From Alphaproteobacteria bacterium GM202ARS2 (GTDB taxonomy: Bacteria; Pseudomonadota; Alphaproteobacteria; GM7ARS4), in contig JACONH010000012.1 in the NCBI GenBank assembly GCA_014323835.1, forward strand, positions 95,363 through 159,362: a DNA stretch of 64,000 nucleotides. The letters are read 5' to 3'. The position numbers and the translations under genes are program-made. Within the stretch, counting starts at the first letter, position 1. Every line of letters starts with the position of its first letter. Positions 18,001 through 60,306 of the stretch are shown here, piece after piece. Below the pieces are notes generated by a model that made no database searches, was not told where the DNA came from, and saw only the letters and a list, made by a program, of their open reading frames with translations.

Positions 18001-21000
18001 GCACGCCGACGATGGACAACTTGAACCCGACTCGGTATGGGCATGGGCTTATGGACTTAGAGTGTGCCACTCGTGCCAGCTTAACGCAGGAGCGTTGCCG
18101 CACAGCATCAGACGCGCCGTCTGTGTGCTTGGCGAACGGTTTTGGGCATAATGGTTTTATTTGTGTGACCACAGGCATTACGACTGGCGATTGTGGTCGA
18201 GCAGGGGGCTTGCTGTCGGGCACTTCTTGTATTGCCGCGAGTGCCTGCACGGGTGGTATGGTGATTAACGTGGACAATGACGAGTGCGTTTCGTCATGTG
18301 AGACGACAGATGTTATTGGTGCTGGTGGTCGTTTTGCGACCAACAGGTGTTATACGGTGGATACGTGCATTATGGCGGGCGGGGGCTTGTCGGCTATGAG
18401 CAACGGCATGTGTGCCGCGGCGAATGCGCGGACGTGTCATAATGCTGGTGCGGATACGTATTTCTATGATGGCTCGAGCCGATGTGTTACGGATTGTGGC
18501 ATGAACAATGTGGGGCGGGTGAATGGCACGAGCAACTCGTGCATAACGCAGACTATGTGCCGTAGCAATAGTATCAGGGGTGCGGTTGTTGGTGGTGTGT
18601 GTGAGATGGCATCGGCGGACAATTGCTTTGCTGATGGTGGCTTGGGCTTTATGACCAATGAGTGTGTGACGGCATCTGAGGGGACGTGTAGTGAGGAAGC
18701 CAACTATGTCTACGATGGCTCGAGTGCTTGTGTGCCGGGTGCCAATATCAATGTTCGGGTATCGGGCATTGATACGCGGGTAAAGGCTTTGGCGTTGTTT
18801 ACGGGTGACAAGGCAGAGGCAACGGCGTCGGATGCGGTGAAGAACATCCGCACCGAGTATCAGGCACAGCCGTCTTTGGCTCATGTGCATGCCGCGCAAG
18901 CGTATGTCAGCCAAGTGGCAGAAACCGGTGAGACGGTGAGCAATCTGAGTCAGTTGGCTATTGGTAAGGATAGTTTGATTAACGTGATAACCAATCGGCG
19001 TTTTGACCCGACGCACCCTGAGTTCTCGTCCTCTGCCGACGGTGCCGAATACGAGACGTTGACTCGCTTTGAAATCGGCACGGATGATAACGAATTTACC
19101 AGCGATGCGAGGGATATCACTGAGGGAAGCAACAAGATTATCTCGGCAATTTTCAATCAAGATACGGGTGATAATCCGCGGGTTATTTCTTATGAGAACT
19201 GGTTCCAAGCGGGTCGCTCGTTCATATCGGTCAGAGTGCCGCAGATTGATGGTAGGAATTTCGATGAGATTTCTCGTAGTGGTGCGGGCTTTACATCGAC
19301 TGACACTAGCAATCAGGTTGGCTTGGACTTATTGGCGTTCTTCCAGACGATTCTCGGTGGGGACAGAGTTGGCTCTGTGACCTTTGACGGTGACGAAATT
19401 CTTTATAATAGTAACGAAGCCATAGACTTGGTATCGAATACCGACCATGGCACGGCGCGGCGGTTCAATCATATTGGGCGGGTGTATGCGCGCGGTAATG
19501 TTGGTTCGTATCGTGTTTTTGCCACAAGAGTCATCGATGGCGTGCGGCAGAATAATAACAACTATGCGAGCGGTATTCCCAATGAGGCGAATGCGGCTGA
19601 GATGGGCTTGTTAGTGTTGATTAACGGCTTGTTGGATGGTCAAGGGGGCGCGACAAACACGCATGGCATTGCACCGGGGGCGACGTTGAATGTCTTTGCG
19701 ACGCCGACTTTCAGTAGCGGTAATAATGTGGCTGATTGGACTCTGCGGGCCCGTGGCATCGATTTGGGACGTGATAGGGACGGTAGCGGCAATCTGATAG
19801 CGGATAAGACTCGTCATATTGTGTTGATTCAGAATGGCGTTGCCGATTCGGGCACGGGTAATGCGGTGAATCGCAATAGTGTTAATTCGGCAGGAAGAGG
19901 CAGTGGGGCTTATCGTGGTCTTTTGCCTAACTTGCAGTTGGGTGTCAAGGCGCCGGGCTCGGCAACCGCTGAGGAGCTCAGAGCACAAGATATTTATGTG
20001 TTTGCCGCGGCGGATAATCGTAATACGCACAAGGATGTGGGTATTCTTGCCGCGATGCCGTTGGCGACAGAGAATAGCATTAACATCAGTCCGTATTCGG
20101 TTGCGGTGGTGGCTGCTGAGAATGCGGCGAATGCTCATTGTGGTTCGGTGGCGCGTTCCTTCTGTCTGGCGGCACCGGGGTCGTATGCGTATCGCACGAA
20201 AACCGGCGGCTCGTATGGCGGTGGTGATGACACCATTGCGGTTGCCCGTGCGACCTCTAATGCTGCGGCGTCACTGGTTGCGGGTGGCTTTGCTATCCTC
20301 GAAGAGATATTTGGCGACCAGATGGGCAGTCATGATTTGGTGCAGCGGATGCGTTTGACCGCATCCACGTGCTTTAATGTGCAGGGTGCTGCGGGGGATC
20401 CGTGGAATAGTGATACGAACACCTGTGATAACAGCAAGAACGACTATGTTGGTGATTCGGCTAGTCAGCGTCTTGGCTCGGTGCCGGGGGAGAACCGCTT
20501 CGGGCATGGGCTTATGGACTTAGAATGTGCGACAAGAACGGCTCTTGAGCGTGATGGCTGTCGCATAGCGTCTACGGATACCGCGGCGGGTTGCTTGGCG
20601 AACAATCAAGGGTTCAACGGCGTGACTTGCACGGCGACCGGCATTACCGCCGCCGAATGTGTTGAAGCGGGCGGTATTAGGGAAGGCACCATGAATCGTT
20701 GTATTGCGCGCACGGCTTGCACCAGTCCAAGGTTGTTTAACCTTGACAACAATACGTGCGTTGATATGTGTGATCCTGGCGAGGGGCGGGCATCGGGTAG
20801 ACGCTGTGCCGCGGCGAGCGATGAAAACTGTAATAACTTGAGTGTTCGCTATGATGTTGGCAATGATACGTGTCGTGGCGACCAGAACTGTGGGAATAAT
20901 GAATTTCGTGGGGATAGTAACCTTGGGACGAACTCGTGTTATACGGTGGCTTCCTGTGGGAGCAATGGTGGCGGACGAGCCAACGCTGGCTCGGGTCTGT

Positions 21001-24000
21001 GTGTGCCAGCAACGGAAGCGACCTGCTACAATCTTGGTGCGACAACCCGTTACTTGCAGAATGGCGACTGCGTGACCAGTTGCACGGGTGGTGAATTGAC
21101 TCGTTCTATTGCGATGATGAATGTTTGTGTGTCTGATACGAACTGCCGTGGCTCTCGTCAGGGTGCGGTGTCTGGCACCACGTGCATTGCCCCCAGTGCG
21201 ATGGCGTGCAATGATGATGGCATGCGTGCCTTTAACAATGCGATGGATCGGTGTGTGGTTTCGTGCATTGCCAATGATAGCGGACGGGGTCGTGATTCCA
21301 GTCATAACTGTGTTGGGGCAACGGGTGCGTCTTGTCGTCTTGCTGGTGGCAATAGCAATACGATGGGTTTCTTTGATAACAGCGATAGTGCCAACCCCAC
21401 GTGTGTTGCCACTGCGGGCGATTGTAGCGGTAGTCAGTTTGGCGAGACGGATGGCAGTTCGAATACCTGTGTTACCAGCTGCACGAATCTGACGTATGGT
21501 GTCGATGATGATGAAATCTGTGTTATGCCCAGCAACCAAGATCAGTGTGGCAACGCCAATCGTTTCTTACAGGGCGGTATCTGTGTGGCTGCGTGTTCGG
21601 GGACGACCGACATTGTTGGCGGGGCATTGTCGGGCATGGATGCCACCTGTGTTGCTGTCACGGCGTGTATCGCTGGCAATTTGGGTGTTGAGAACGGCGA
21701 GTGTGCGACCGCGAATGCAGGGACGTGTCATGGTGCGGGCGAGAACACGTATTTCTATGATGGCTCGTCCATGTGTGTGTCCGATTGTGGCAACAACAAT
21801 GTTGGCTTGATTGATAGAACCGCTATGCAGAACACCTGTGTGACCGAGACGAATTGCCGCGACACACGTAATGATGCGATTATCGATGGTGTCTGTGTGG
21901 CGGCGAGTGCTCTGACGTGCTTCCAAGATGGCGGTAGGGGCTTTGATGGGACGAGCAGCTGTGTAGATGCGGCGGCGGATACGTGTCTCAGCACGAGTAA
22001 CCTGATGTTTATGAATGGTAGCTGTGTCTCGTCATGCACGGCGGGTCAAGGTTTCCGTGGTGGTAGCTGTGTGGCTTTGACGGGGTTGACGACAGGGCAA
22101 CAGATTGAAGCGTGTTCGAATATTGGGCGTTTGTATGACCCTGTGGATGGCACACCGACGTGTGTGGCGGCTGGCGCGAATTGCAGTGGTGACTTGGTGC
22201 AAGGACGCCGTGAGATTAACGTGAATGGTGTTGTCTCGAATACGCAGTGCATTACGGCAATGGCGTGTGGCGATGCTACGTATGGTGTTGCGAGTAAAGT
22301 GTGTGTCGATGCGGCGGCGGATACGTGTCGTGCTGCGGGTGATTCCACGTATTACTTTGATACGGATGGTGGCTGTGTGACCATGTGTTCTACGGACGAC
22401 CGTCTGTATACGTTGAATAGTGCGACGGCGGGTAACAGCTGTGCGACGGTGGCAGAGTGTCGTGCGGATACGGATACGGGCACTGCGTTGCGTGGGGCGT
22501 GCATGACAGCATCGGTAGAGAACTGCTTTATCGATGGGGGTAGAGGCTTTGATAGTGGTGAGTGTTTGACACCGACGCAGGCGAGTCATTGTGATTCGAA
22601 TGCCAACTTAGTGTGGAATAATGCTGACAACTGCGTCAGCATGGAGCGGGTTAATGTTGCCGTCAGTGGTATTACGTCTCGCCAGCTGGCAGAGGAGATG
22701 TTTACCGGCGATGTCGATGATACCTCAGCTGACATTGTTATCAGGAGCATCCGCCAAGAGTATCAAAATCAGCCGTCACTGGATATTGTGGGTGCCGCGC
22801 AAGCGTATGTTAGCAAAGTGGCAGAAAGCAACGCGGATATTATGAACCTCAGCGAGCTGTCTTTGGGTAAGGATAGTGAGATTAGCGTGATTACCAATGC
22901 TCGTTTTGATCCGAATCACCCTGAGTTTGCCTCTTCCCGTGGCTCGACCTTCGATACGTTGACGCGGGTGAGTGGATTTCGAACTAGTGTCGGTCTTCAG
23001 TTATCCAATATTGTCAATGAATTCTTTGGTGGCGATATGACGGCTACTGGCAGGCGGGCTACTGCTTATACGTTTAGTATAACTGGTCAACGATTTTACT
23101 TTACCCTACCGATAGGGGAAATCGACAGCATGCCTTTTGAAAATCTCGCACGAGATGACGTGACAGCTTCTGGGACGGCTAGAGCAAACCAGATACGTGA
23201 TATCTTGCGTCTGTTGACCGGGAATACAGAGGGCGAGTTTAGTGGTGACCTCAGTTTTAGCGATACGGGTTTCCCAACGGGGACGGCTAGTCGTTTTATT
23301 CAAATTTCTCGGATGGCAGCGGATGGGGTCAACCATGTCGGGCGTATTTATCAGAATAGTAACATTGGCTCGTATCAAATTGTTCTGGGCAGACAAAAAG
23401 TGCGTGAGGCAGACGATAAAGGCGAGTGCATCGGCAACAACAACTGTTATTCCTCATCCGGGGGTGTCCCGTCAGCGGCGAGCGATGCCCAGATGGGTGT
23501 GTTGGCTTTGATTAACGGCTTGTTGGATAGTCGCGGTGGGGCTGAAAACACGCATGGCATTGCTCCTGCGGCAACGTTGCATGTGTTCACCGCGCCTAAG
23601 GTGGGGGCGACAGGGCATAGCAGTGCTGATTTGATTTATCGCGCACGGAGCATCGACCCCGCCCGTGATTTAATGGATGGCACGAACACCATTATTGCCG
23701 ATGACGACCGCAACATTGTTCTTATCCAGAACACCATTGCGGTTACGGCTCGCACGGAAGCGGCGACTGTTGCCAATGTCGGTGATGTTGTTGGCTTGGC
23801 AGGAGCACCGACCACGTTGGATAATGACTACAAGGGGATTTATGATGCGTTGCTCGTGGGTGTTGATGCGGATTCGGCAACGCAGGATGCTTATGTCTTT
23901 GCGGCGGCGGATGGGGCTAGAAGCGATGTTGGTTTGTTGGCGGCGTTGCCGATAGCGACCAACTCGAAGCTGGCTGAGTATTCTATTATTGTGGTTGCGG

Positions 24001-26858: not shown

Positions 26859-26901
26859 GGATGGTGTCAACGACTACGGCACAGATGCCACCAAGCACGG
26901 A
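26804..26901 (+). repeat. perfect tandem duplication, 2 x 49 bp (TGGATGAGGATGGTGTCAACGACTACGGCACAGATGCCACCAAGCACGG)
   Basis: Read directly: 26804..26852 is identical to 26853..26901. 49 is not divisible by 3, so the second copy shifts the frame and provides the TGA stop of the upstream ORF. Confidence 0.95.
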
Positions 26902-28497
26902 CAAGGGCTGATGGACTTGGCGTGTGCCATACGCCCGACCCTCGCCACGGGCGACTTGGTGCGCACCGGTTGCACAGACCGTCATCCTCTCGTTTCCCAG
27001 AACGCGCCGCCCTCACAATCCTCAGGACAAAACGCCCCGCCCGCAGCCCAAGAGGAACAAGAACACAGCGAGGATGGGGAACGCACCGAAGCGACCCCCG
27101 CTGAGGTTAACACCGTGGACTACTGCGATATTGACGGCTTGCGGATTATCTTGTCGGGTGACTTGTGCTCAGATGATTACCTGACCCTCGTAGACAAAGA
27201 CGGCAACGTCAATGGCGCGCTGATTGGTAACTTGCGTTTTGGTATGGGCTTTGGCGACTCGTTGTTGCAGGGTATCGGTATCACCTTCTTCGATGCCTTC
27301 GATACCGCTTGGACGGTGGACAATCCCTATAACCCGTATGCGCATCTGTTGAACTTTGGCAATATTGTCATCGCCCCCGCCGAATCCCGCTTCGATGTTG
27401 AAGATAGGTTCTATGCTATGCGTTATGGCACGCGTCCGGGCACGCGCAAAACATGGAACAGCGATACGGCTCGTATCACTTTCGACTTTGCTACGCAAGG
27501 CATGGCGACCAAGCCTTATGCGGTCACCCGTGGGCAAATCCGCAACACCATTACGCACGACAACATTGGGGCTGACCCCTATGCCGATGTCCGCTTTATG
27601 CTCTCTGCTGAGGATTCGTTGGGTGTTGGGCTTGGACGCCTGAAAGTCATGACGTATTCGGGCATGGCGATGGGCTATGCGTTGGGCTTGCATGCACAGG
27701 GCGATGCCATGATGCCGAGTTACTTGCTGACGAATCGTGACTCGTTCCATGCCCCGTATCTGTCTCTGGCGAGCAGTGGCTTAGGTGGCGGTATGACCTA
27801 TCGCTTCCGTGATGGCGGGCATATTGGTTTTGTGATGGGCGAAGGCACGAGCTTAAACGCTGATGGCACACTGCCGTATCAGCAACAGACGTCTCGTCCG
27901 CGGGCTTTCGCGGGTATGATGGAATATGCCCCGCACCGTAACTTGATGTTCCATGCGGGTGCGTTGCAAGAACAGAGCACGCTGTTGGCATCGCAAGGCT
28001 CAGGCTTGTTTGATATTCAGGGTGGCACAACCACCTTCGTTGGCGTGCAAGCCAAACAGCCGTTGACTGATAACTGGCAGGCGTTGGTCAGTGGCTATGG
28101 CGGACGCACGCAGCTTGCGGGGTCGGGCGGTATTGTGTCGGGCTTGGATGTGATGACGTCTTCGTTTGATGTGGGCTTGCTTGGCTCGCATGTCTTGGAG
28201 AAAGGCGACCATCTGTTGTTCCGTGCGGGACAACCGATGAAGGTCGAGTCGGGCTCGCTGGACTTGTCTTATGTGTCGTTCCGCCGTCAGGATAGGTCGG
28301 CAGTCAGTCATACGCAGAGCTTCGATGTTGCCCCGTCCATGCGGTCGGTGGAGTTCGGGGTGGGCTATGGTATGCCCATTGGCTTGAATGGCAGACAAGG
28401 CCACATGCGTTTTGCTATAGACTACGTGCTGAATCCGGGACACCGACGGGTGCGTGATGAGGTCTTTGGCATCATGTCATTCCGCCGCGAATTTTAG
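26853..28497 (+). pseudogene. out-of-frame 3' continuation of the giant gene (linker + autotransporter-like beta-domain), separated from 9051..26858 by the 49-bp duplication frameshift
   Basis: A different frame from copy 2 onward reads DEDGVNDYGTDATKHGQGLMDLACAIRP...FRREF*, colinear with the C-terminus of the downstream paralog (...NQHGQGLMDLECAVRP...FRREF). The C-terminal aromatic residue and alternating beta-strand pattern suggest an outer-membrane beta-barrel. The ATG at 26764 in the ORF track is not a real start. Confidence 0.65.
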
Positions 28498-28508
28498 GGG
28501 AGGGCACC

Positions 28509-31500
28509 ATGAACACATCAACAACACACACTGCAACAACGCAAACTGGGAGAAAAACAACCATGACACTGCTTACTGGCTTTTGTAACACCCTTCGTAA
28601 CATAGGTATAGCCGTCTTTGTGCTTCTTGTTGGAGCCTGCGATTCAGGGACGGAATTCTCGCCGAGTCGAGAAGTCCCCTTCGCACGGTCAGGCGGTAGC
28701 GGCGGTGTCACGCCCACAGACCCGACAACGCCCACAGACCCGGGCACGACAGACCCGGGGACAGTAGACCCATCTCGGGGTGGTCTGGTTGCTGCGTCCA
28801 TTTGTGCGACACCGTATGAGGGCTTGCCGCAGGGCATGACCGAAGCCTCGCAGTGTGTGCGTTTGAACGCGCCAAGCCTCGATGAGAACGGCAACATTGT
28901 GACCAATAGAGATGGCACAGAAGTGCCGCGTTACCGTGATGATGGCATTAGTAGGGAATCGCTGTGCTATCGTGCGGGGCGTAATGACGAACCGCTGGTG
29001 TATGATCACAGCACGGTATCGTGTGTGCGTGCTTTTCAGGGCTGTCCTGATGGGCAGGGAGTCATCCAAGCCCTTGGCAATAACGAGCAAAGTGGCTTGG
29101 GTCGCCGTTGTAGTGGACAAACGCCTGAGAACATTCAGACAATCAGCACGGTGGTTGTGGGTATTGCCAGTGGCGATGATGCGGATGCTCGTCAAGGCAA
29201 GATAGACGCTGCCATTACGGCGGAGCGCATGGCTAATCCTGATGTTGATTTGATTAATGTTGTTGAGGTTTTTTATGACAGCACCGATGATGGCACTGCG
29301 CAAGCGAACAAGCTGCAGGCTGTAACCAACAAAGTCAATGGTGCTCCTCTTGTAGATGGTGAGGCTCGTTTTATCTTCCGCACTGTTGCGGTGGGCATCG
29401 AGCCGACCGACACGCCAGCAGAGCGACTTGCGAAAGTCAAAGCGGCAATCACGGCAGAGCGTGCAACGTTGCCAAGCGGCGGCGGGGGTGAGACGGCTCT
29501 TAATGCCAATTCGATTATTAATGTCATTGAGGTCTTTTACGATGACGGTGACAGCGATGCCGAGAAAGAACGCAAAGTGGCTGAGGCTATGCGGGACGAG
29601 GCACAAGGCAATCGATTCGAGCACCAGCTTTTGTTTGTGACGGTTGCGGTGGGCATCGAGCCTGATGACACGCAGGCGATGCGTGAGGACAAAATCAGGG
29701 ATGCGATTAATGCGCGCCGTGCCGAGGTGCCGAATGCTCTTGCGATTGTAGCGGTGCCGGTTTTCCACGAGGCGGACGACACCGATGACGAGAAAAATGC
29801 AGCTTTAGCTGCGGCTTTGGCGGAAGCGGTGCGGGGTGACAATCAAGAGGCGACTGCGTTGCGGAAAAAATATGGCTCGTATACGGCTGATATGTGTAGC
29901 GCGGGCGGGCGTTTGTTGACGGTGCGAGGCACGGGTGCGGATGCTTTGACGGGGACGGGTTGCACGAATTTGTGTGCGGACGGCACGTTTGTTGGTGATG
30001 GCGGCGGGTCGCGCAGTGCTGGTATTTGTTATAATGATGTTGCGTGCACCGCGAGTGGCGGCGGACGAGCCGAACGTGGCAGTGGTGCGTGCATCGCGGC
30101 ATCGCCTGAATCCTGTTATGGAGTTAGTCGTGCGGGCAGTGAAGGTGTTGCCGCTGTATCGTATTTCTTTACGAATAGTCGGTGTATCCACAATGGCTGT
30201 ATCGATGATATATCGTTGGTGCGGGCGACCAGTGCGACTCGTGGCACGAGTACGTGTACGACTGTGCGGGAATGTTATAATCAACATGGCAGAACGTTGA
30301 CGGGTAATCGTTGTGTTGCGAGTTCTCGGTTGTGTTTGCGGCGCGGTGGGCGGGGCTTTGATGGCGATAGGTGTGTGGCAGCGAGCGAAGACTCCTGTGG
30401 CGGTGGCTTGGCGTTCTATTATGAGGGGCAGTGCCTCAGGGCGACATGTGGCGAGAGGAATGAAATCCCTGATGCCAGACGTTTCGATAAGTGCATCAGC
30501 GAGGCGAACTGCACAAGTGACCGCAGCGCGGCGTTGGCACAAAGCGGTGAAATCTGTGTCAGCAAGCAACAGGGCTGTCCGACAGGGCAGGGTGTCAATG
30601 GGGAGAGATGCACCGAGACGGTGAATGCGGCGACGTGTGCGGATGCTGGGCGATTCGTTGATGTGCGTGGCGGTGGTGGGGCGCGCTGTTTTAATACGTG
30701 TGCGGGACGTGAGGTTATTGCGGGGAACGTCTGTTTGGTGGATACGTGTGCCGCGGATGAGGTGTATAGCCCAACGAGTTTCCAGTGTGTCGATATTGAT
30801 AGCGATGCTGATACCGCGGCGACGCAGTGTCAAGCGGTGGGGCTGGTGGCGAATGTCGCCAATAGCCGTTGTGTCGAGCGATGCTCGGGCAATACGAGAA
30901 TCGCCACGACTGGCACGCCGCGCTGTGTGACGGATGTGACCCGCAGCAGTTGTCTGTCTAATAATCAGGCTTTTGATAGGGCGACGGGTGAATGTGTTAC
31001 GGCAGACCTTGATACGTGTGCGGCGACGGGTGCGTTCTATGATGGCTCGGCTTGTGTTGAGTTTGGCAACAATGCGACGATGATAACCACGATACGTGGA
31101 ACGGATGACGCTGCCGCGGATGGCGTCGATGGCAAGCAATCAGCGGCTTTGGCGGCGTTGCGGGAGGCGATTGCCGCGGTTGATGATGCCGATATTGGTA
31201 GCACACAGGACGTAACCACAACAGTGGATGATGATGACGACCCTAATACGCCTGAAGTCCCTATGGATTTCTTTGGCAATGGGGCGGATTTGTTGTTGTT
31301 GCAGGCTTCCGCCAGCGATACCCCAACCCGAACCATGCTGTTGAATCGTTTGCGAGTGGCGTATGCCAATCAGCCGTCCCTCGACCAAGTGGGTGCGGTG
31401 TTCGCGCACCATGTGGGTGACTCGGGGCGGACGTATGGCTTTGGCTCGACGGTGTCGTATTTTGCCCCGATTCCGACAAGCGACCGAGAGGGTAGCGACC

Positions 31501-34500
31501 AAGGCTTACTCGACCTGATTAGCGGCGGCGGTGATGTCTCGGATGCGGCGGTGACCCTAGGAGAAAACTTTAACTTTGGTGGCATCAAGACCCTGCGTCA
31601 TTCTATCGCCCCAGAAGCAACCCTGAATGTTGTCAATACGGCAGGTATGGCATTACAACGGGATTCAAGTGGTCTCAGAGCTATTGTTAGCAGATCTGGG
31701 ACGAGAACGACAGCAGGAAGTGAAAGTTCCTTGAGATCGCTTATAGACAGGGATGAGTTTGTGGTTCAGCTACAGGATACTAACGTGTATCGTCATATTA
31801 CAGGTGCCGGGGCACCAGCATGGCAGACTCGCGGCAATGTCATTCTCTTCGATAACCGCATGGCTGCCGATAAAGATATACACACTGTCTTCGCGGCGCG
31901 GGCAGCCAACTATTTTGAAGGGTTGACGACCGATACCAATGCCGATGCCATCGACCCCATTGGTTTTAGGAATAGCGTCTGGCGTCTCGATGCTCGTGGT
32001 GGTGCTACTTTAGCGACTTCCAGCTTTACTCGTGACCTTGACGCCTACTTCTATGCACCGGGCACACAAAGCCCGGCTTTCGCCAATGTTAGATACGATA
32101 ATCTTTATATCGATCAGCCTAGGGGGAATAATGAGGTTTACACATTGCCCGGCGGCTTTTTCACTAGGCCCCCGCCCCTCGGCGGCACGTTTCCTCATCG
32201 TCCGCAGGGAGAGCAGTTAAGGAATCTCGTCATCGAAGGGCTGTATGGCACTGGCACACGGCTTTATCCGACTACTCGTGGGCGAGAGACGAGGCTCAGA
32301 TTAGTCGTTAATACCCTTAACGCCCGAACAGACACATACAAAATGGTGGACACATTTAGGCGTTTTGACAACAACGAGCTCAATGTGATTGATGCCATTA
32401 TTGACCTGATGAGACAGCGGGCGGCGACTCCCGATGTTGAGATGGATGCTTTGATTTTTGCTGCTGATGATGAAGCCAGCGATATTGGTTTGTTTGCGGG
32501 TTTACCGATTTATATCGACCGTATCCGTGCGACTCGCGATAGTGGCATTGACTCGCCGTTGCCTTACTATCTGGCGGTGGTGGCTGCTGAGGAAGGTGCG
32601 TGTGGGTGGACGGCGCGGGACTTCTGCATTACGGCACCGGGTTCGTATACGTATGCCGCCAGTGGTGCAACCTCGCTATCGACGGCGACCAGTGCCAACG
32701 CCGCGGCGGCGTTGGTGGCGGGTGGCGTTGCCCTGTTGCAAGAGATCTTTGACGGGCAGTTGGGGACGGCAGAAATCATTGCTCGTTTGAAGGCGACGGC
32801 TTCGCAGAACTTCGATGTGGACGACGATGGCAGTAATGACTATGTCGGCAATGAGGATATTCCCGATGCCGATGATGTCCGTGCCGGGCAGCGTCGTTTT
32901 GGGCATGGCTTGTTGGATTTGGCGTGTGCGACTCGTGCCAGTTTAACGCAGAGGCGTTGTCGCACCATTACGGTGAACAACGTGCTGTCGGATGACGCGC
33001 AAGCGTGTCTGAGGGCGAGGCAGGGCTTTGATGGCTCGGCTTGTATTACGTCTCCGGTCAGCCAAGCGGATTGTGACCTTTTGAATGCAACATTTTCCAA
33101 TGGTCAGTGCATGGCACCGAGAGCCCCTCGGGTTGTGCGTGGTAACCGTCAAACGTGTCTGTCGTCGGGGCGGGGCTTTGATGGCACGAACTGCATTGCT
33201 ATCCCTGTCGTGCAGGAGCATTGTGACCCGCTGAATGCGATATTGGCTAGGGGTAATCGTTGTGTTGCGCCGGGTGGTGCTCCTGCGGTTATTCTTGGCA
33301 ATCGCGACAGCGAAGCCGATGTTGTGGCTCTGTTCGAAACGTCCGCACCGTCCTTTAGTGCGGGGGTGACGAACGTACAGAGACTCGCACGGGAATATCA
33401 GAATCAGCCGAGTTTCCGCACCATTGGCGTTGCCGATGCTTATGCCCGCGGTTCCGAGCGCGTCACTTATGGTAGCAGAACCGACAGATTGATGTTGCAT
33501 GATTTGAATCTGGGACAGGGGGCGCGGATAAGTTATATCACCAACTCGCGCTTTGACCCGAGTCATCCTGAGTTCACCCGGGATGCTTATGTCACCGCTG
33601 AGAACAACCACGTCAGAACTGTGCAGGTGATAGACCCTGTTACGATGATGCCTATGATGGAGACGGTGATAGACCCGGATACGATGACGGAAGTGACACG
33701 AGTCGTAACTCGAGACATCATCACCGAGCTGAGCAAGACGTATGGGGCAGAAAGCAACATTGCTCACCATGGGATTCATATCGAAACTGCCTTTTTGACA
33801 CCGAGGGAAGGTGAGCCTGATATTAGCACGCTTATTGGTGGCATTGATGCGGCGGATATGGGTGTGATGGCGTTGATTAATGGGCTTGTCAATCCGTCGG
33901 GGAGCACCGATGCGGCGACTTATGCCAGCAATACCCATGGTGTTGCACCGGGGGCGCGCTTGGAGGTGTTTACGATACCGCACTTAGGCTTCTATTCGCA
34001 TGGCGCCTTCCGTGTGAATGAACAGACGTTGGTGCGTAGGGCTCGTGGTGCTGATCCTTCGGGTAATAACAATAATTTCCGTAACATTGTTGTGTTTAGT
34101 AACGAGATGATTAGAGAGGAGGCTGAGATTCATCCAGTGACCATGAGGAATCTTATTGAGGTGGTGGACGATAGAACAGACGGCAGGTTCGGTTCGACCG
34201 GGCATATTCCTCTTACAAACCCAGAAGGCGGAGACCCAAGAGATACAGTCGTCGGCTACGATACGACATTTAGAACTTTGGTTGAGAACGTCCGTGCCCC
34301 GCATCGAACTCGCAGTGACATACGGCAAGCCCAAGATATATACGTGTTTGCGGCGTTGGATGGTCGTGGCGATACTCGTGATAGTTCGGGTATCAAGGCG
34401 GGTTTCAATGATGCCGGTTTATTTGCCTCGCTGGTAGCGGCATCGCGTCCTAACAATGACGATGGCACGTTGGGTCGGGCGGTTTTTGCCGATTATAGTC

Positions 34501-37500
34501 TGGTTGTGGTGGCGGCGGAGCGTTATCAGACCTACGATAGTGCCAGCTCGTGGGCGGAGAACTCGCCTTGTGGTGGTTTGGTGCAGACCCTCTGTATCGC
34601 TGCCCCGGGTGTGTATCGTTATCGCGACCGTGATGATGATGGCAACTATGAGACAAGCCTAAGCACGGGCTCTAGTGCGAATGCCGCGGCGGCACTGGTT
34701 GCGGGCGGTGTTGCCTTGCTCGAGAGCTTGTTTGGCGACCAGCTTACGTCGGATAGGTTGGTGGTGCGTTTGCTTGCGACAGCCAGCCAAGACTTTGACT
34801 TGAGCGGACAGGGTGGCAATACGCTAGACGGCAATAACGACTATGTGGATGAGACAAACGGCTTAACGAAGGAAGAGCGTTTTGGCGTTGGCTTGCTCGA
34901 CCTCGAGTGTGCGACTCGTCCGATTGTATCGGGGGATACGCCTCGTTGTCGTGGTGGTGTGGCTCGTGGCACGCCTTCGTCTTGTTTGTCGGCGGGTCAG
35001 GGTTATCGTGATACGGGCGGAGGCTCGTGTGTATCGGGCGTGTCGTTGCGGGCTGAGGATTGCACGCGGGCGGGTGGTTTGTTTGATATCCGTCAATCCC
35101 CGCCGCGCTGTGTGACTCGAGTATCCTGTGGGGCGGACACGGACGAAATAACGGGTCGTTGTGTGATTCCTGAGCCCTCGCCGTTGGTGTGTGGCGCGCA
35201 GGGCGAATTCTACCACGCCAGCAGTGGCAGCTGTGTCACCAATTGTCGAGGCACCACCACGCCGCTGGTGAATGTGGCAGGCAATACGTGTGTGAATGCT
35301 TGTGTGGGCGGTGTCCGTGATAGGGTGACGAATACCTGTGTGGCGGCAACGATAGTGGATGTTGGGGTAACGGGTATCAGCACGCGGAATGCGGCTTTGA
35401 ACTTGTTTGTAGGCGACCCGAGCGAATCGAGCGCGGCGCAACAGGTCAAGGATATTCGTAGCGAGTATCAGGCACAGCCGTCACTAGGGATGGTGGGTGC
35501 CGCGCAGGCGTATGTCAGTCAGTTGGGTGCAAGTGACTCTATCGCGAACTTGGGTGAACTGGCGTTGGGACGCGGCAGTAACATTCGAGTTATAACCAAC
35601 GTGCGTTTTGACCCGAATCACCCTGAGTTTGCCTCGTCACTGCCGGGAGTGGACTTTAGAACGTTGACACGTTTTCTGGTGACACCCACCTCAGGCAATG
35701 AATTCACAGCCAACCGTCCGGATCTGGTTCGCTCCAGTGTCTTCCCTCGTGATAGTGGCAACACGGTCGAGTTCTATAGTGCTGGGGTGGGGACGGGCAA
35801 TGCTCGCTTTACCATTGCTATAGACCTGACGGGTGGTAATCCCGGCTCAACAGCAACAAGCCCGTTTGAAGACCTGTCACTGACGGAAGCTGCTGCTTTA
35901 GCGGCGTCGAATGTCGACTTAGTCGCCCTACAGACACTCTTTAGGAGTCTCTTTGCTGCTTCCCCGACGGTGGTCGACTTGACAATTCAAGGGGCGGCGT
36001 CGGCTAACTTACGCCTTGAGACTTTGCCGGGTCGCTACGTGATTAACTTGAACTCGGATGCCACGATGGGATTCCAGCATATCGGGCGAGTCTATGAGGA
36101 TGGCAGTAACATTGGCTCGTATCAAATTGTTATCGACCCAGCCACTGCGGTGCGGGATGCTGGTGATGAAGGCGAATGTGTCGTCAATGAAGATTGCTAT
36201 GCTTCAGGGGTGCCGGCTATTGCGAGCGGGGCAGAGATGGGTGTGTTGGCTCTGATTAACGGCTTATTGGATGGTCAAGGGGGTGCGGGTAACACCCATG
36301 GTATCGCGCCGGCGGCAACGTTGAATGTGTATACCGGCGCGCAAGTGGGTGCGACTGGCGATAACTATTTGGACTTGGTCTATCGTGCTCGGGGTATCGA
36401 TGTGGGACGGGATATCAACGCTGACGATGCCGTTGTAGGAGATGACGACCGCAACATTGTTATCATCCAGAGCGATATGTTGCGTAACTTGGCGAGCGGT
36501 GCCACCGTCCCTGATCCTTCTACGGGTATTACCAATCTCCGTAGCAATAATTCGGCAGTGGATAACTTCTACAAAGCCTTAGAGGTGGGTGCGGCGGATA
36601 CCGCAACGCAGGATGCCTTTATCTTTGTTGCTGATGATGCCCACCGAGCCGATGACGACCCGAACAAAGGCTATGCTGGCTACGTTGAGACACTTGGTGT
36701 GATTAATAGTATGCAGACCCTCTACAACTATAGCCTTCTGGTGGTGGCTGCCGAAGACGGACAGGTTGGCTGTGCCGCACCTCGTCTTGGGTCTGCCTTA
36801 GACGACCTTAGGCGTGCCTGCATCGCTGCCCCGGGGACGTATCGCTACCGCACCCGTAACTCTACCGATGGGACGTATAACGATGCACTAGCAACCGCTA
36901 TCAGTGGCGATGCCGCGGCATCGTTGGTTGCCGGTGGCTTGGCTCTGTTGGAGTCGATATTCCCGACCGAGAACACCTCTCGTTTGATTGATAGGTTGTT
37001 GATGACGGCATCGCAGAACTTCGATATCGATAATGACGACCTCAACGATTACGATGTTAACCAACACGGACAAGGGCTGATGGACTTAGAGTGTGCGGTG
37101 CGTCCCGCGCTTATGAGCGGCACGCTGGCTCGCACGGGTTGCACGGATAGGTTTGCGAGTGGTATTCCCGACCCGACTCCGCCGTCGCAGAATGCGCCGT
37201 TACCGCGCCCGCCTTCACAGAACGCTGAGCCTGTCGGTGAGTCGCAAGGGGAGCGCGCCGATACCGGCGGTGTCGAGTATTGTCATATTGATGGTTTGCG
37301 GATTATTTTGTCTGGTGATTTATGTTCGGACGATTATATATTGCTGGCGGACAGCGAGGGCGAGGTCAATCCTGATGCGATAGGTAACTTGCGGTTTGGC
37401 ATGGGCTTTGGCGATGCTTTATCGGGCAGTGCTTTTGGTGGCATTACGTTCTTTGATGCTTTTGATACGGCGTGGACGATAGACAATCCGTATAATCCGT

Positions 37501-38654
37501 ATGCGCAGCTGTTGGACTTTGGCAGTATTGTGATTGCGCCGATTGAGTCTCGTTTTGACATTGAGGATAGGTTCTATGCGATGCGTTATGGCACGCGTCC
37601 GGGCACGCGTAAGACGTGGAATAGTGATACGGCGAATATCACGATGGACTTTGCTACGCAGGGCATGGCGACCAAGCCTTATGCGGTCACTCGGGGTCAA
37701 ATCCGCAACACGATAACCCATGATAATGTGGGTGCTGACCCGTATGCGGATGTGCGCTTTATGTTGTCGGCGGAGGACAACGTGGGCATTGGCAGGCTGA
37801 AGGTTATGGCGTATTCGGGCATGGCGATGGGGTATGCTTTGGGCTTGCATGCGCAGGGCGATGCGATGATGCCGAGTTATTTGCTGACGAACCGTGATTC
37901 CTTCCATGCGCCGTATTTGTCGTTGGCGAGCAGTGGCTTAGGTGGTGGTATGACGTATCGATTCCGTGATGGTGGTCATATTGGTTTTGTGATGGGTGAG
38001 GGCACGAGTTTGAATGCGGATGGCACTTTGCCGTATCAGCAGCAGACGCGTCGTCCTAGGGCTTTTGCTGGCATGATGGAGTATGCCCCGCATGGCAATT
38101 TGATGTTCCATGTGGGTGTTTTGCAGGAGCAGAGCACGTTGTTGGCATCGCAGGGTTCGGGTTTGTTTGCGTTGCAGGGTGGCACAACGGCGTTCTTTGG
38201 CATGCAAGCCAAGCAGCCGTTGGGTGACAACTGGCAGGCGTTGGTGAGTGGTTATGGGGGTCGCACGCAGATGGCTCGCACGAGTGGCATTGTGTCAGGC
38301 TTGGATGTGGTGACGTCATCCTTTGATGTGGGCTTGTTGGGCTCGCATGTGTTAGAGAAGGGCGACCATGTGTTGTTCCGTGCGGGACAGCCTATGCGGG
38401 TAGAGTCGGGCACGTTGGACTTGTCCTATGTATCGTTCCGCAACAAAGCGCGGGGCTCGGTGGGCAATGTGCAGAGCTTGGATGTTGCACCAAGCATGCG
38501 CTCGGTGGAATTCGGCGTGGGCTATGGCTTACCCATAGGCACAAACGGAAGCACGGGACACATGCGATTCGCTATCGACTATGTCCTCAACCCGGGACAC
38601 CGCAACGTCCAAGACGAAGTCTTCGGTATCATGTCCTTCAGAAGAGAATTCTAG
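28509..38654 (+). CDS. giant surface protein paralog (3381 aa). It has a lipoprotein-type signal, three subtilase(S8)-like modules, Cys-rich repeats and a C-terminal autotransporter-like beta-domain.
   Basis: GGGGAGGG SD 6 nt before the ATG. The signal/lipobox is ...IAVFVLLVGACDSG, followed by TPTDPTTPTDPGTTDPG. Three modules carry the YANQPS / RFDPSHPEF / NTHGVAPGA / APG / SANAAAALVAGG motifs. The C-terminal ~520 aa are near-identical to 26900..28497 and end in GIMSFRREF. Confidence 0.75.
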   Translation: MNTSTTHTATTQTGRKTTMTLLTGFCNTLRNIGIAVFVLLVGACDSGTEFSPSREVPFARSGGSGGVTPTDPTTPTDPGTTDPGTVDPSRGGLVAASICATPYEGLPQGMTEASQCVRLNAPSLDENGNIVTNRDGTEVPRYRDDGISRESLCYRAGRNDEPLVYDHSTVSCVRAFQGCPDGQGVIQALGNNEQSGLGRRCSGQTPENIQTISTVVVGIASGDDADARQGKIDAAITAERMANPDVDLINVVEVFYDSTDDGTAQANKLQAVTNKVNGAPLVDGEARFIFRTVAVGIEPTDTPAERLAKVKAAITAERATLPSGGGGETALNANSIINVIEVFYDDGDSDAEKERKVAEAMRDEAQGNRFEHQLLFVTVAVGIEPDDTQAMREDKIRDAINARRAEVPNALAIVAVPVFHEADDTDDEKNAALAAALAEAVRGDNQEATALRKKYGSYTADMCSAGGRLLTVRGTGADALTGTGCTNLCADGTFVGDGGGSRSAGICYNDVACTASGGGRAERGSGACIAASPESCYGVSRAGSEGVAAVSYFFTNSRCIHNGCIDDISLVRATSATRGTSTCTTVRECYNQHGRTLTGNRCVASSRLCLRRGGRGFDGDRCVAASEDSCGGGLAFYYEGQCLRATCGERNEIPDARRFDKCISEANCTSDRSAALAQSGEICVSKQQGCPTGQGVNGERCTETVNAATCADAGRFVDVRGGGGARCFNTCAGREVIAGNVCLVDTCAADEVYSPTSFQCVDIDSDADTAATQCQAVGLVANVANSRCVERCSGNTRIATTGTPRCVTDVTRSSCLSNNQAFDRATGECVTADLDTCAATGAFYDGSACVEFGNNATMITTIRGTDDAAADGVDGKQSAALAALREAIAAVDDADIGSTQDVTTTVDDDDDPNTPEVPMDFFGNGADLLLLQASASDTPTRTMLLNRLRVAYANQPSLDQVGAVFAHHVGDSGRTYGFGSTVSYFAPIPTSDREGSDQGLLDLISGGGDVSDAAVTLGENFNFGGIKTLRHSIAPEATLNVVNTAGMALQRDSSGLRAIVSRSGTRTTAGSESSLRSLIDRDEFVVQLQDTNVYRHITGAGAPAWQTRGNVILFDNRMAADKDIHTVFAARAANYFEGLTTDTNADAIDPIGFRNSVWRLDARGGATLATSSFTRDLDAYFYAPGTQSPAFANVRYDNLYIDQPRGNNEVYTLPGGFFTRPPPLGGTFPHRPQGEQLRNLVIEGLYGTGTRLYPTTRGRETRLRLVVNTLNARTDTYKMVDTFRRFDNNELNVIDAIIDLMRQRAATPDVEMDALIFAADDEASDIGLFAGLPIYIDRIRATRDSGIDSPLPYYLAVVAAEEGACGWTARDFCITAPGSYTYAASGATSLSTATSANAAAALVAGGVALLQEIFDGQLGTAEIIARLKATASQNFDVDDDGSNDYVGNEDIPDADDVRAGQRRFGHGLLDLACATRASLTQRRCRTITVNNVLSDDAQACLRARQGFDGSACITSPVSQADCDLLNATFSNGQCMAPRAPRVVRGNRQTCLSSGRGFDGTNCIAIPVVQEHCDPLNAILARGNRCVAPGGAPAVILGNRDSEADVVALFETSAPSFSAGVTNVQRLAREYQNQPSFRTIGVADAYARGSERVTYGSRTDRLMLHDLNLGQGARISYITNSRFDPSHPEFTRDAYVTAENNHVRTVQVIDPVTMMPMMETVIDPDTMTEVTRVVTRDIITELSKTYGAESNIAHHGIHIETAFLTPREGEPDISTLIGGIDAADMGVMALINGLVNPSGSTDAATYASNTHGVAPGARLEVFTIPHLGFYSHGAFRVNEQTLVRRARGADPSGNNNNFRNIVVFSNEMIREEAEIHPVTMRNLIEVVDDRTDGRFGSTGHIPLTNPEGGDPRDTVVGYDTTFRTLVENVRAPHRTRSDIRQAQDIYVFAALDGRGDTRDSSGIKAGFNDAGLFASLVAASRPNNDDGTLGRAVFADYSLVVVAAERYQTYDSASSWAENSPCGGLVQTLCIAAPGVYRYRDRDDDGNYETSLSTGSSANAAAALVAGGVALLESLFGDQLTSDRLVVRLLATASQDFDLSGQGGNTLDGNNDYVDETNGLTKEERFGVGLLDLECATRPIVSGDTPRCRGGVARGTPSSCLSAGQGYRDTGGGSCVSGVSLRAEDCTRAGGLFDIRQSPPRCVTRVSCGADTDEITGRCVIPEPSPLVCGAQGEFYHASSGSCVTNCRGTTTPLVNVAGNTCVNACVGGVRDRVTNTCVAATIVDVGVTGISTRNAALNLFVGDPSESSAAQQVKDIRSEYQAQPSLGMVGAAQAYVSQLGASDSIANLGELALGRGSNIRVITNVRFDPNHPEFASSLPGVDFRTLTRFLVTPTSGNEFTANRPDLVRSSVFPRDSGNTVEFYSAGVGTGNARFTIAIDLTGGNPGSTATSPFEDLSLTEAAALAASNVDLVALQTLFRSLFAASPTVVDLTIQGAASANLRLETLPGRYVINLNSDATMGFQHIGRVYEDGSNIGSYQIVIDPATAVRDAGDEGECVVNEDCYASGVPAIASGAEMGVLALINGLLDGQGGAGNTHGIAPAATLNVYTGAQVGATGDNYLDLVYRARGIDVGRDINADDAVVGDDDRNIVIIQSDMLRNLASGATVPDPSTGITNLRSNNSAVDNFYKALEVGAADTATQDAFIFVADDAHRADDDPNKGYAGYVETLGVINSMQTLYNYSLLVVAAEDGQVGCAAPRLGSALDDLRRACIAAPGTYRYRTRNSTDGTYNDALATAISGDAAASLVAGGLALLESIFPTENTSRLIDRLLMTASQNFDIDNDDLNDYDVNQHGQGLMDLECAVRPALMSGTLARTGCTDRFASGIPDPTPPSQNAPLPRPPSQNAEPVGESQGERADTGGVEYCHIDGLRIILSGDLCSDDYILLADSEGEVNPDAIGNLRFGMGFGDALSGSAFGGITFFDAFDTAWTIDNPYNPYAQLLDFGSIVIAPIESRFDIEDRFYAMRYGTRPGTRKTWNSDTANITMDFATQGMATKPYAVTRGQIRNTITHDNVGADPYADVRFMLSAEDNVGIGRLKVMAYSGMAMGYALGLHAQGDAMMPSYLLTNRDSFHAPYLSLASSGLGGGMTYRFRDGGHIGFVMGEGTSLNADGTLPYQQQTRRPRAFAGMMEYAPHGNLMFHVGVLQEQSTLLASQGSGLFALQGGTTAFFGMQAKQPLGDNWQALVSGYGGRTQMARTSGIVSGLDVVTSSFDVGLLGSHVLEKGDHVLFRAGQPMRVESGTLDLSYVSFRNKARGSVGNVQSLDVAPSMRSVEFGVGYGLPIGTNGSTGHMRFAIDYVLNPGHRNVQDEVFGIMSFRREF

Positions 38655-58954: not shown

Positions 58955-59572
58955 CTATCGTCTACGTTGTTTGTTGGGGGGGTGCGGGGTCAATAGCTCT
59001 TGCGGATCCACGCCGGCGGATATCAGCAGTTCCCTGGTATGCCAAAGGGGCAAGCCAAGAGCACTCGACCACGAGCCATTCATGGCACGGACAAAGACTC
59101 CTGCTGCCCCCGCCAAGTCCAGCCCCGCAGCCCTTTTCTGCCACGCATTGCTGGCAATATAGGCGGCACGTGCCTCCTCACCCAGTCGACCAAACTTCAG
59201 CCACGTGGTCTGGTGCGTTACCGACACCCTGTCGGGCATGATAAGGCACAATGCCGTTGTGATGGTGAATCGCCGTCCGTCAAAGCAGGCAAGCATCGAG
59301 GCTGCCTGTTCGGCAGTCTCAGGAGTCGTGAAGAGCTGTCTTTGCCGCGCCACAACCGTATCCGCCGCCAAAATAAACGCCCCCTTGCTGTCTTTCAGGC
59401 TAGCCACCGCATCCGCCTTACGCCGCGCCCACAAGCGCGCCACCTTCGACGCCGTGCCCACCTCAGGATACGACTCAACAACAGAAGGCACCACCACACG
59501 GAAATGCGGAATCACCTGCCTCAGCAGAGATGCCCGAGACGATGACGATGAAGCAAGAATAAAGTTACGCAC
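58955..59572 (-). CDS. maf: Maf-like nucleoside triphosphate pyrophosphatase (septum formation protein Maf)
   Basis: Conserved Maf core FILASSSSSRASLLRQ.GIPF.VV.S.V.E...ILAADTVV.....L.KP....A..ML...GR.H.V.T.....FVR..NGSWSSALGLPL. Start trimmed to the GTG at 59572 (VRNFILASS...). The 235-aa ORF-track version adds a W/G-rich leader with no support. Confidence 0.7.
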   Translation of the reverse strand: MRNFILASSSSSRASLLRQVIPHFRVVVPSVVESYPEVGTASKVARLWARRKADAVASLKDSKGAFILAADTVVARQRQLFTTPETAEQAASMLACFDGRRFTITTALCLIMPDRVSVTHQTTWLKFGRLGEEARAAYIASNAWQKRAAGLDLAGAAGVFVRAMNGSWSSALGLPLWHTRELLISAGVDPQELLTPHPPNKQRRR

Positions 59573-59671
59573 AGCAAATAACGCAGATAAAACCCTAGAC
59601 ACAAAAACTATAAACACACACCAGCACAAAAGCCACCCCCCCCATCCCCCCCACCGATACAAACCGATACA

Positions 59672-60030
59672 AATGTTTCTCGTGAAACATTGCTTTTTTT
59701 TCTATCCTCTTATTTTTTTCTTTTCTGTTAAAAATCATCGTGTTATAGCGTTTTACCCTGTTTCTTCCTCCCGCGATGTTTCACGTGAAACAATTCTTTT
59801 TTTTTGCATCGACTTGTTTTTTTCTTTTCTGTTGAAAATCATAGCGTTATAGCGTTTTACCCCGTTACCCTCGCGATGTTTCACGTGAAACAATTCCTTT
59901 TTTTTGCATCGACTTATTTTTTCTCTTTTTGTTAAAAAATCATAGCGTTATAGCGTTTTGCCCCGTTACCCTCGCGATGTTTCACGTGAAACAATTCCTA
60001 TCCTGTCGATGTTTCTCGTGAAACAATTCC
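59672..60030. repeat. intergenic tandem repeat array (about 100-bp unit, ~3.5 copies) carrying the 16-bp palindrome TGTTTCACGTGAAACA
   Basis: The palindrome or a 1-mismatch variant (TGTTTCtCGTGAAACA) starts at 59674, 59778, 59878, 59978 and 60010. Each unit also contains ATAGCGTTATAGCGTT and long T-runs. The array lies between the 3' end of infA and the 5' end of maf. Confidence 0.8.
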
Positions 60031-60087
60031 TTTTTTTATCGCAGGTATACTATGCTATCTCTTTGTTTTATCTCTCTATATTGGTGT

Positions 60088-60306
60088 TTATTTATGCCGA
60101 AAGATGATTCGTCCTTTGGTTAAGTCGTAGGGGGTCATTTCTACTGTGACTCTATCGCCGGCGAAGACGCGGATGTGGTGTTTGCGCATTTTGCCAGCGG
60201 TGTGGGCGAGAATCTCGTGGCCATTGTCCAGTTTGACTTTGAACATGGCGTTGGGCAGTGTATCGAGAACGATACCAGAAAATTCTATCAGTTCTTCTTT
60301 CGGCAC
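60088..60306 (-). CDS. infA: translation initiation factor IF-1
   Basis: 72 aa, [70 protein letters not shown], near-identical to bacterial IF-1. Confidence 0.95.

Follow-up and report, generated by a model that had tools for sequence, protein, structure and literature searches.

The region examined here lies between infA and maf in a window of 64,000 nucleotides, the window being the whole stretch of DNA that was analysed. Both genes are on the minus strand, and the first-pass annotation, which had placed them on either side of the repeats, was confirmed by Pfam matches on a separately assembled JGI metagenome contig, Ga0189853_1000053 (L001), in which the same array occurs with 100% identity. 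The start of maf is uncertain, being either a GTG at 59572 or, according to JGI, position 59515. Beyond the array, hisD, hisG and gltA are found on one side, and a tRNA, a DUF1223 gene, polA, dapF, speE and the isc/hsc cluster on the other. An exact-protein look-up of InfA matched no record.

The infA–maf spacer is occupied by about 3.2 tandem copies of a T-rich unit of ∼101 bp and by a partial copy of 32 bp. Tandem Repeats Finder delimits an array at 59673-59999 (period 101, 3.2 copies, 89% matches) and, together with a mismatch scan, bears out the initial description of tandem ∼100-bp repeats that carry a 16-bp palindrome. The features are as follows, the 16-bp sites being designated as predicted parS copies for reasons given below.

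58955 to 59572, minus strand: maf (Maf-like NTP pyrophosphatase), downstream neighbour of the array; Pfam match on the identical JGI contig
59633 to 59673, plus strand: C-rich tract (59633-59655) and ACCGATACAA in two copies (59653-59673), outside the repeat unit, between the array and maf
59673 to 60037, no strand: whole tandem array, three ∼101-bp units and a 32-bp partial unit, with a T-rich plus strand
59674 to 59689, no strand: predicted parS copy A, TGTTTCTCGTGAAACA (one mismatch, A7T), closest to maf; mismatch scan against the consensus
59777 to 59792, no strand: predicted parS copy B, perfect TGTTTCACGTGAAACA
59841 to 59856, plus strand: 8-bp direct repeat ATAGCGTT in two copies inside the unit, travelling with the duplicated unit
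59877 to 59892, no strand: predicted parS copy C, perfect TGTTTCACGTGAAACA
59978 to 59993, no strand: predicted parS copy D, a perfect site whose flank, CGA...AATTCCTAT, recurs at parS sites of the sister lineage
60010 to 60025, no strand: predicted parS copy E, TGTTTCTCGTGAAACA (A7T as in copy A), in the 32-bp partial duplication, closest to infA
60088 to 60306, minus strand: infA (IF-1, 72 aa), upstream neighbour of the array; match to Pfam PF01176 in the JGI contig of identical sequence

The array thus holds three perfect copies of TGTTTCACGTGAAACA (59777, 59877 and 59978) and, at 59674 and 60010, two copies of its one-substitution variant TGTTTCTCGTGAAACA. Three of the palindrome positions given at first reading (59978, 59674 and 60010) are exact, and the other two are displaced by one nucleotide (59777 and 59877 instead of 59778 and 59878). 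An internal direct repeat, ATAGCGTTATAGCGTT, had been attributed to each unit. It is exact only in two of them, at 59841 and 59942, and the first unit has a version with two mismatches at 59737; in terms of the 8-bp element, the pair of ATAGCGTT recurs unchanged at 59942-59957 and in degenerate form at 59737-59752. The two copies of ACCGATACAA reported beside the array are indeed present. The C-rich tract that precedes them reads CCACCCCCCCCATCCCCCCCACC, and homopolymer runs of C as long as this one may be liable to slip.

When up to two mismatches to TGTTTCACGTGAAACA are allowed, the 64-kb window contains five matches for 0.02 expected, a number reached in none of 100 shuffles, and all five fall inside the array. 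As the sites are tandem duplicates, they should be counted not as five separate events but as a single one, a perfect 16-mer and its amplification. Start-to-start spacings of the palindromes are 103, 100, 101 and 32 bp. Outside the palindromes, the units are pairwise 74-89% identical (differences of ∼10-25%), and the most diverged unit, 74-77% identical to the others, still retains a site with 15 of 16 matches. Within the array, conservation of the palindromes is not significantly higher than that of the spacers (P ∼0.17-0.26), the array being too young to reveal selection on the sites. The remainder of the ∼101-bp unit has no further copy anywhere in the 64-kb window, and the unit is also absent from the loci of the relatives described below.

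Sequence identity of the palindrome with parS

Judged by its sequence, the 16-mer TGTTTCACGTGAAACA is the canonical chromosomal parS consensus, the predicted loading site of ParB/Spo0J. In a full-text search with the exact 16-mer, all of the matches listed (20 of 27) concern ParB/parS, the ParB-related Noc, or the organization of origins and chromosomes. In the alphaproteobacterium Hyphomonas neptunium, purified ParB shifts a double-stranded oligonucleotide of sequence 5′-TGTTTCACGTGAAACA-3′ and leaves a two-base mutant unbound (PMC6650430). The parS consensus TGTTNCACGTGAAACA is matched in the array by the three perfect sites and, with one mismatch each, by the two others. The initial proposal of an array of sites for a dimeric DNA-binding protein therefore stands, with the qualification that the 16-mer, the universal parS bound by ParB, had not been recognized as such. 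The role then proposed, control of the maf promoter, is not retained: since the 16-mer is the universal chromosomal parS, the primary role of the array would be in chromosome segregation.

The distribution of the motif was examined with a control scan for parS and its immediate flank across a collection of genomes from 185,579 species, which provided at least 117 loci. Among the matches listed, parS with its flank was found in Firmicutes, Alphaproteobacteria, Actinobacteria, Chloroflexi, Acidobacteria and other phyla, and 44 of 117 loci had a homologue of ParA or ParB within the 8 kb fetched. No relative of the window appears among the at least 117 loci listed. A scan of metagenomes with a longer flank, in the style of the window lineage, gave 14 matches, two of them directly beside parAB and none related to the window by blastn or tblastx. 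This occurrence across phyla, and beside parA or parB at part of the sampled loci, indicates that the array motif is the ordinary parS.

Tight clusters of parS are common in the sampled genomes, with three to four sites within 70-300 bp and spacings of 33-114 bp among the matches listed. Those of a Clostridia MAG (L037), an Acidobacteria MAG (L049) and Neomesorhizobium albiziae (L113) are intergenic, with spacings of ∼33 bp and 108-114 bp that recur and are near the values in the window. Unlike in the window array, the DNA between their sites is not detectably repeated, and the sites are therefore old duplicates or independent. A tandem repeat detected by Tandem Repeats Finder and holding at least two parS was found, among the matches listed, at one of 117 loci, in a Ruminococcus MAG (L093).

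Several further observations were made on the sampled loci. Neighbouring parS pairs recur, in various phyla, at centre-to-centre distances of ∼33-38 and ∼44-49 bp (L037, L033, L098, L113, L047, L056, L012, L019 and L101), in addition to the 32-bp pair of the window. Adjacent ParB dimers may pack preferentially at such distances, or these may simply be common sizes of small duplications. In the Ruminococcus MAG RUG12770, a perfect parS is followed 11 nt further on by a degenerate parS-like palindrome, both inside a conserved repeat of more than 80 bp that is found, among the matches listed, at eight loci on seven contigs (L011, L022, L026, L033, L080, L093, L105 and L119). L093 alone has nine parS-like sites in 8 kb, and the repeat looks like a dispersed, parS-carrying family. 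Two alphaproteobacterial MAGs have perfect parS on many different large contigs, namely MFD04651.bin.1.176 (L004, L013, L021, L073, L078, L088 and L112) and VAR_78_metabat_482 (L025, L030, L052, L063, L068 and L084). Their sites mostly share an asymmetric extension, G-A-parS-AATTCCTA, which is the same as at 59978 in the window. A TTCCTA extension as a general feature of parS was considered and discarded: in parS not selected by the query pattern, only two core-adjacent positions show a preference (T/A, then T).

The neighbourhood in sister and distant lineages

Protein searches assign the window to a lineage of uncultured Alphaproteobacteria, whose closest relative with a name is the sponge MAG ‘Alphaproteobacteria bacterium GM7ARS4’ (82% identity in citrate synthase). 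This MAG has been assigned to Ca. Methylospongiales, from Lamellodysidea sponges, and the closest named relatives of the window have reduced genomes of 1.6-1.8 Mb (PMC7313196). The gene order gltA-hisG-hisD-infA-maf-DUF1223-polA is conserved in all relatives retrieved.

A sister lineage is represented by three sponge-metagenome contigs (L002, L135 and L140; ENA ERZ25068803), with GltA 92% and Maf 67% identical to those of the window. It has one parS ∼30 nt downstream of infA, in the same infA–maf position as in the window and with one mismatch in the central CG, and three to four further parS at a distance of 7-8 kb, in the spacer between speE and the DUF1244 gene. There, parS occurs in tandem pairs of 55 bp on either side of an ankyrin-repeat gene that has been inserted (L002 8221-9342; L140 10890-12684), whereas the same spacer of the window organism measures only ∼80 bp and is devoid of parS. 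Units bearing parS have so been duplicated locally in the sister lineage too. With sister sites both at the infA position and in the speE-DUF1244 spacer, the neighbourhood appears to act as a conserved centromere zone in which individual sites turn over. Local alignment of the window spacer with the sister spacers detects homology only at parS and its TAGGAA flank; an extended asymmetric context, TCGA-parS-(A/T)TTCCTAT, is common to all parS of the window organism and the sister lineage. In L135, a gene with a SocA_Panacea domain and a 119-aa ORF are inserted at 13929-14779, between the parS that follows infA and maf, and together look like a toxin-antitoxin pair.

Mismatches in the parS of these ENA long-read contigs (L002 1078; L135 13710; L140 10890, 10945, 12614 and 12669) are all transitions at the central CpG, from CACGTG to CATGTG or CACATG. 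L002, which is near-identical to L140, has perfect parS at the speE-DUF1244 positions where L140 is mismatched. Such a pattern points to errors of base calling, possibly linked to methylation, instead of true variation, so that the sister-lineage sites may in fact be perfect.

In more distant clades (L003 and L136; GM7ARS4 loci L137-L142), the infA–maf spacer is 16-88 bp long, and no parS was found in 20-29 kb of syntenic sequence. Conserved and clustered parS in the related neighbourhood is a property of the sister lineage, and is not found in the GM7ARS4 and L003 clades. Given these short spacers without parS, the array is a derived insertion or amplification specific to its lineage.

Partition, amplification and competing readings

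The best explanation of the array, to which a probability of about 0.88 is given, is that of a tandemly amplified cluster of five chromosomal parS sites, in other words a predicted bacterial centromere of the ParABS type. The sequences themselves show that the palindrome is identical to parS, that its copies are clustered, that the sister lineage conserves the neighbourhood and that the array arose by tandem duplication. The five sites derive from a ∼100-bp intergenic unit that already held one parS. In the simplest history, parS would have arisen in the neighbourhood in the common ancestor of the window and sister lineages, the site of the infA–maf spacer would then have been amplified in tandem in the window lineage, and in the sister lineage sites would have been duplicated elsewhere in the same 10-kb zone.

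The mechanism is drawn from ParABS biology as reviewed (PMC7022226, PMC5002424) and from work on Caulobacter (PMC5815017). Each 16-bp palindrome would be recognized by ParB dimers through their helix-turn-helix domains; upon binding CTP, the dimers would close into clamps and slide to flanking DNA, leaving the site free for reloading. Five loading sites within 350 bp would together nucleate, strongly and at one point, a partition complex of ParB and DNA that probably spans several kb on both sides, is moved by ParA and probably also loads SMC. A cognate ParB is assumed in this scheme. Points that count against it are the lack of significantly better conservation of parS over the spacers, the reduced genomes of the closest named relatives, as ParAB has been lost in some reduced genomes, and the negative results that follow. 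Searches by tblastn with B. subtilis Spo0J, Soj and DnaA revealed no parA, parB or dnaA in the 64-kb window, none of these genes is found in the extra 5.5 kb of the JGI contig, and parAB is not next to the array, at least over ∼60 kb in one direction and ∼10 kb in the other. No other parS was found in ∼70 kb around the array. AT-rich tracts had suggested that the array could be a replication origin, an idea rejected in view of the absence of DnaA boxes in or near it; in the window as a whole, DnaA boxes are not enriched (17 for 11.7 expected), and the skew profile has no clear inflection across the 64 kb.

Comparison with known systems clarifies what is ordinary and what is not. The same 16-bp palindrome, TGTTTCACGTGAAACA, serves in Bacillus subtilis (Spo0J/parS), Caulobacter crescentus (parS1-7) and Hyphomonas neptunium, where several chromosomal sites likewise lie in one short region amid housekeeping genes. 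The known chromosomal sites are independent and spread over kilobases, whereas those of the array fall within 350 bp and are recent tandem duplicates of a ∼100-bp unit; parAB is not adjacent to the array, a further difference from these systems. In Caulobacter, the five strongest parS are located within 5 kb, a clustering suggested by the authors to compensate for weak non-specific DNA binding, and many parS are inside genes, in contrast to the intergenic sites of the array (PMC5815017).

The architecture of the array resembles iterated plasmid centromeres more than typical chromosomal sites. In sopC of the F plasmid, tandem 43-bp repeats each contain a 16-bp inverted repeat bound by SopB, which is the same layout of direct repeats with one palindromic site for a ParB-family protein in each. 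Differences from sopC are the chromosomal type of the site, the longer unit (∼100 bp), the presence of only five sites, the chromosomal location and the lack of an abutting parAB operon. The repeat layout of a plasmid-type iterated centromere is therefore present, and the context, with chromosomal housekeeping genes, conserved synteny and no parAB nearby, is not that of such an element. A tentative extension, which we regard as doubtful, is that in a sponge-associated alphaproteobacterium with a reduced genome, near Ca. Methylospongiales, the chromosomal centromere has been remodelled into an iterated array of the plasmid kind. One spacer with a parS would have been amplified to five loading sites, with no other parS cluster in at least 70 kb, whereas the sister lineage retains one site there and has its duplicated 55-bp parS pairs around the ankyrin gene 7-8 kb away.

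As to the benefit of amplification, redundancy or faster loading of ParB is the most plausible contribution of the extra copies; the amplification could equally be a neutral and recent product of slippage or unequal crossing-over. For the T-rich spacers and the ATAGCGTT repeats, the simplest view is that they were carried along as the unit was duplicated; if the tentative extension above were true, the TCGA-parS-WTTCCTAT flank and the same ATAGCGTT repeats could be accessory determinants. It is pure speculation to see an IHF-like site in AATCATAGCGTTA, with an A-tract before it on the plus strand as a parallel to P1 parS, the consensus being too degenerate for a claim.

Among the alternatives, the most serious accepts that the sites are real parS and holds that only one of them matters, or that the true centromere is elsewhere, so that the amplification is neutral and possibly a slippage-generated VNTR that varies between strains. 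This reading, improbable on balance but by no means negligible, is in keeping with the youth of the array, the units of which are still so similar outside parS, with the lack of significantly better conservation of parS over the spacers, with the sufficiency of a single parS for segregation in several species (review PMC7022226), and with a sister lineage that has only one site at the infA–maf position. It is weakened by the preservation of at least 15 of 16 matches in all five copies, even in the most diverged unit, and by the distribution of sites, the array being the sole source of parS in its ∼70 kb while the sister lineage keeps four to five in the same zone.

Far less probable is the reading of the palindromes as operators through which some dimeric transcription factor, distinct from ParB, would control maf or infA, although the array is intergenic, lies upstream of maf and consists of palindromic sites. 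The sequence is identical to the universal parS, and the same site occurs beside parAB in unrelated bacteria. No sigma-70-like promoter is predicted inside the array, which is without promoter-like hexamers, and in the sister lineage the same site with its flanks is also found at intergenic positions unrelated to maf; an operator array in the maf promoter, as first suggested, is accordingly abandoned. The spacing had been described as compatible with helical phase, which is incorrect: at 10.5 bp per turn, 100-103 bp correspond to 9.5-9.8 turns and are nearly out of phase, the one pair in phase being that at 32 bp (3.05 turns). It is nevertheless conceivable that ParB secondarily affects the expression of neighbouring genes, as an effect of this kind has been reported in Pseudomonas aeruginosa (review PMC7022226).

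Equally hard to defend is the proposal that the unit is a dispersed element of the REP or MITE type, a small RNA gene or a terminator hairpin. A T-run follows each palindrome on the plus strand and superficially evokes a terminator, but no plus-strand gene lies upstream for such hairpins to terminate, and the scan predicts no intrinsic terminator inside the array, the stem having only six, mostly A-T, pairs. The RNA fold z-scores of the array strands are strongly negative (-4 and -6); they were rejected as evidence for an RNA, since the predicted helices are formed by the self-complementary parS copies pairing with one another. Rfam gives nothing at gathering thresholds over the array, with noise only at E values up to 1. 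A precedent for a dispersed element exists in the one unrelated Ruminococcus MAG in which parS rides on a dispersed repeat, but here the part of the unit outside parS is confined, within the 64-kb window, to the array. The REP-like element and the small RNA considered in the first-pass annotation are therefore set aside. An assembly artefact, through collapse or expansion of repeats, is scarcely credible either: tandem repeats are prone to misassembly and the window has a suspicious perfect 49-bp duplication elsewhere (26803-26900), but the array is identical in the separate JGI assembly, and its units differ enough (∼10-25%) for short reads to be placed uniquely.

Significance of the locus and a second duplication in the window

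Taken as a parS cluster, the array marks the probable chromosomal centromere of an uncultured lineage of Alphaproteobacteria associated with sponges, and hence probably its origin-proximal region, and the ‘novel operator array’ is removed as a false lead. The type of element is textbook, while its arrangement as recent ∼100-bp tandem repeats each with a parS is uncommon. The locus is a clear case, found in nature, of a chromosomal parS cluster that arose through recent tandem duplication. Together with the sister lineage, in which parS takes different positions in the same 10-kb zone, it could serve to study the multiplication and movement of centromeres and the question of whether the number of loading sites is of consequence. 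If the tentative idea of a rebuilt iterated centromere were true, the locus would capture a centromere in the course of rapid turnover and relocation through local duplications.

The 49-bp sequence at 26803-26900, present in two perfect tandem copies, deserves a separate mention. It is situated where contig Ga0189853_1000053 would end if collinear with the window (∼26802, by extrapolation). At this duplication, an ORF of 5935 aa shifts frame into the next ORF (ORFs 9051-26858, 26764-28497 and 28509-38654). The duplication is probably an artefact of contig joining, or else a true frameshift, within a single giant gene of ∼9,800 codons. In the parts of it that were scanned (9051-20000 and 26764-38654), Pfam matched a Peptidase_S8 segment and nothing else.
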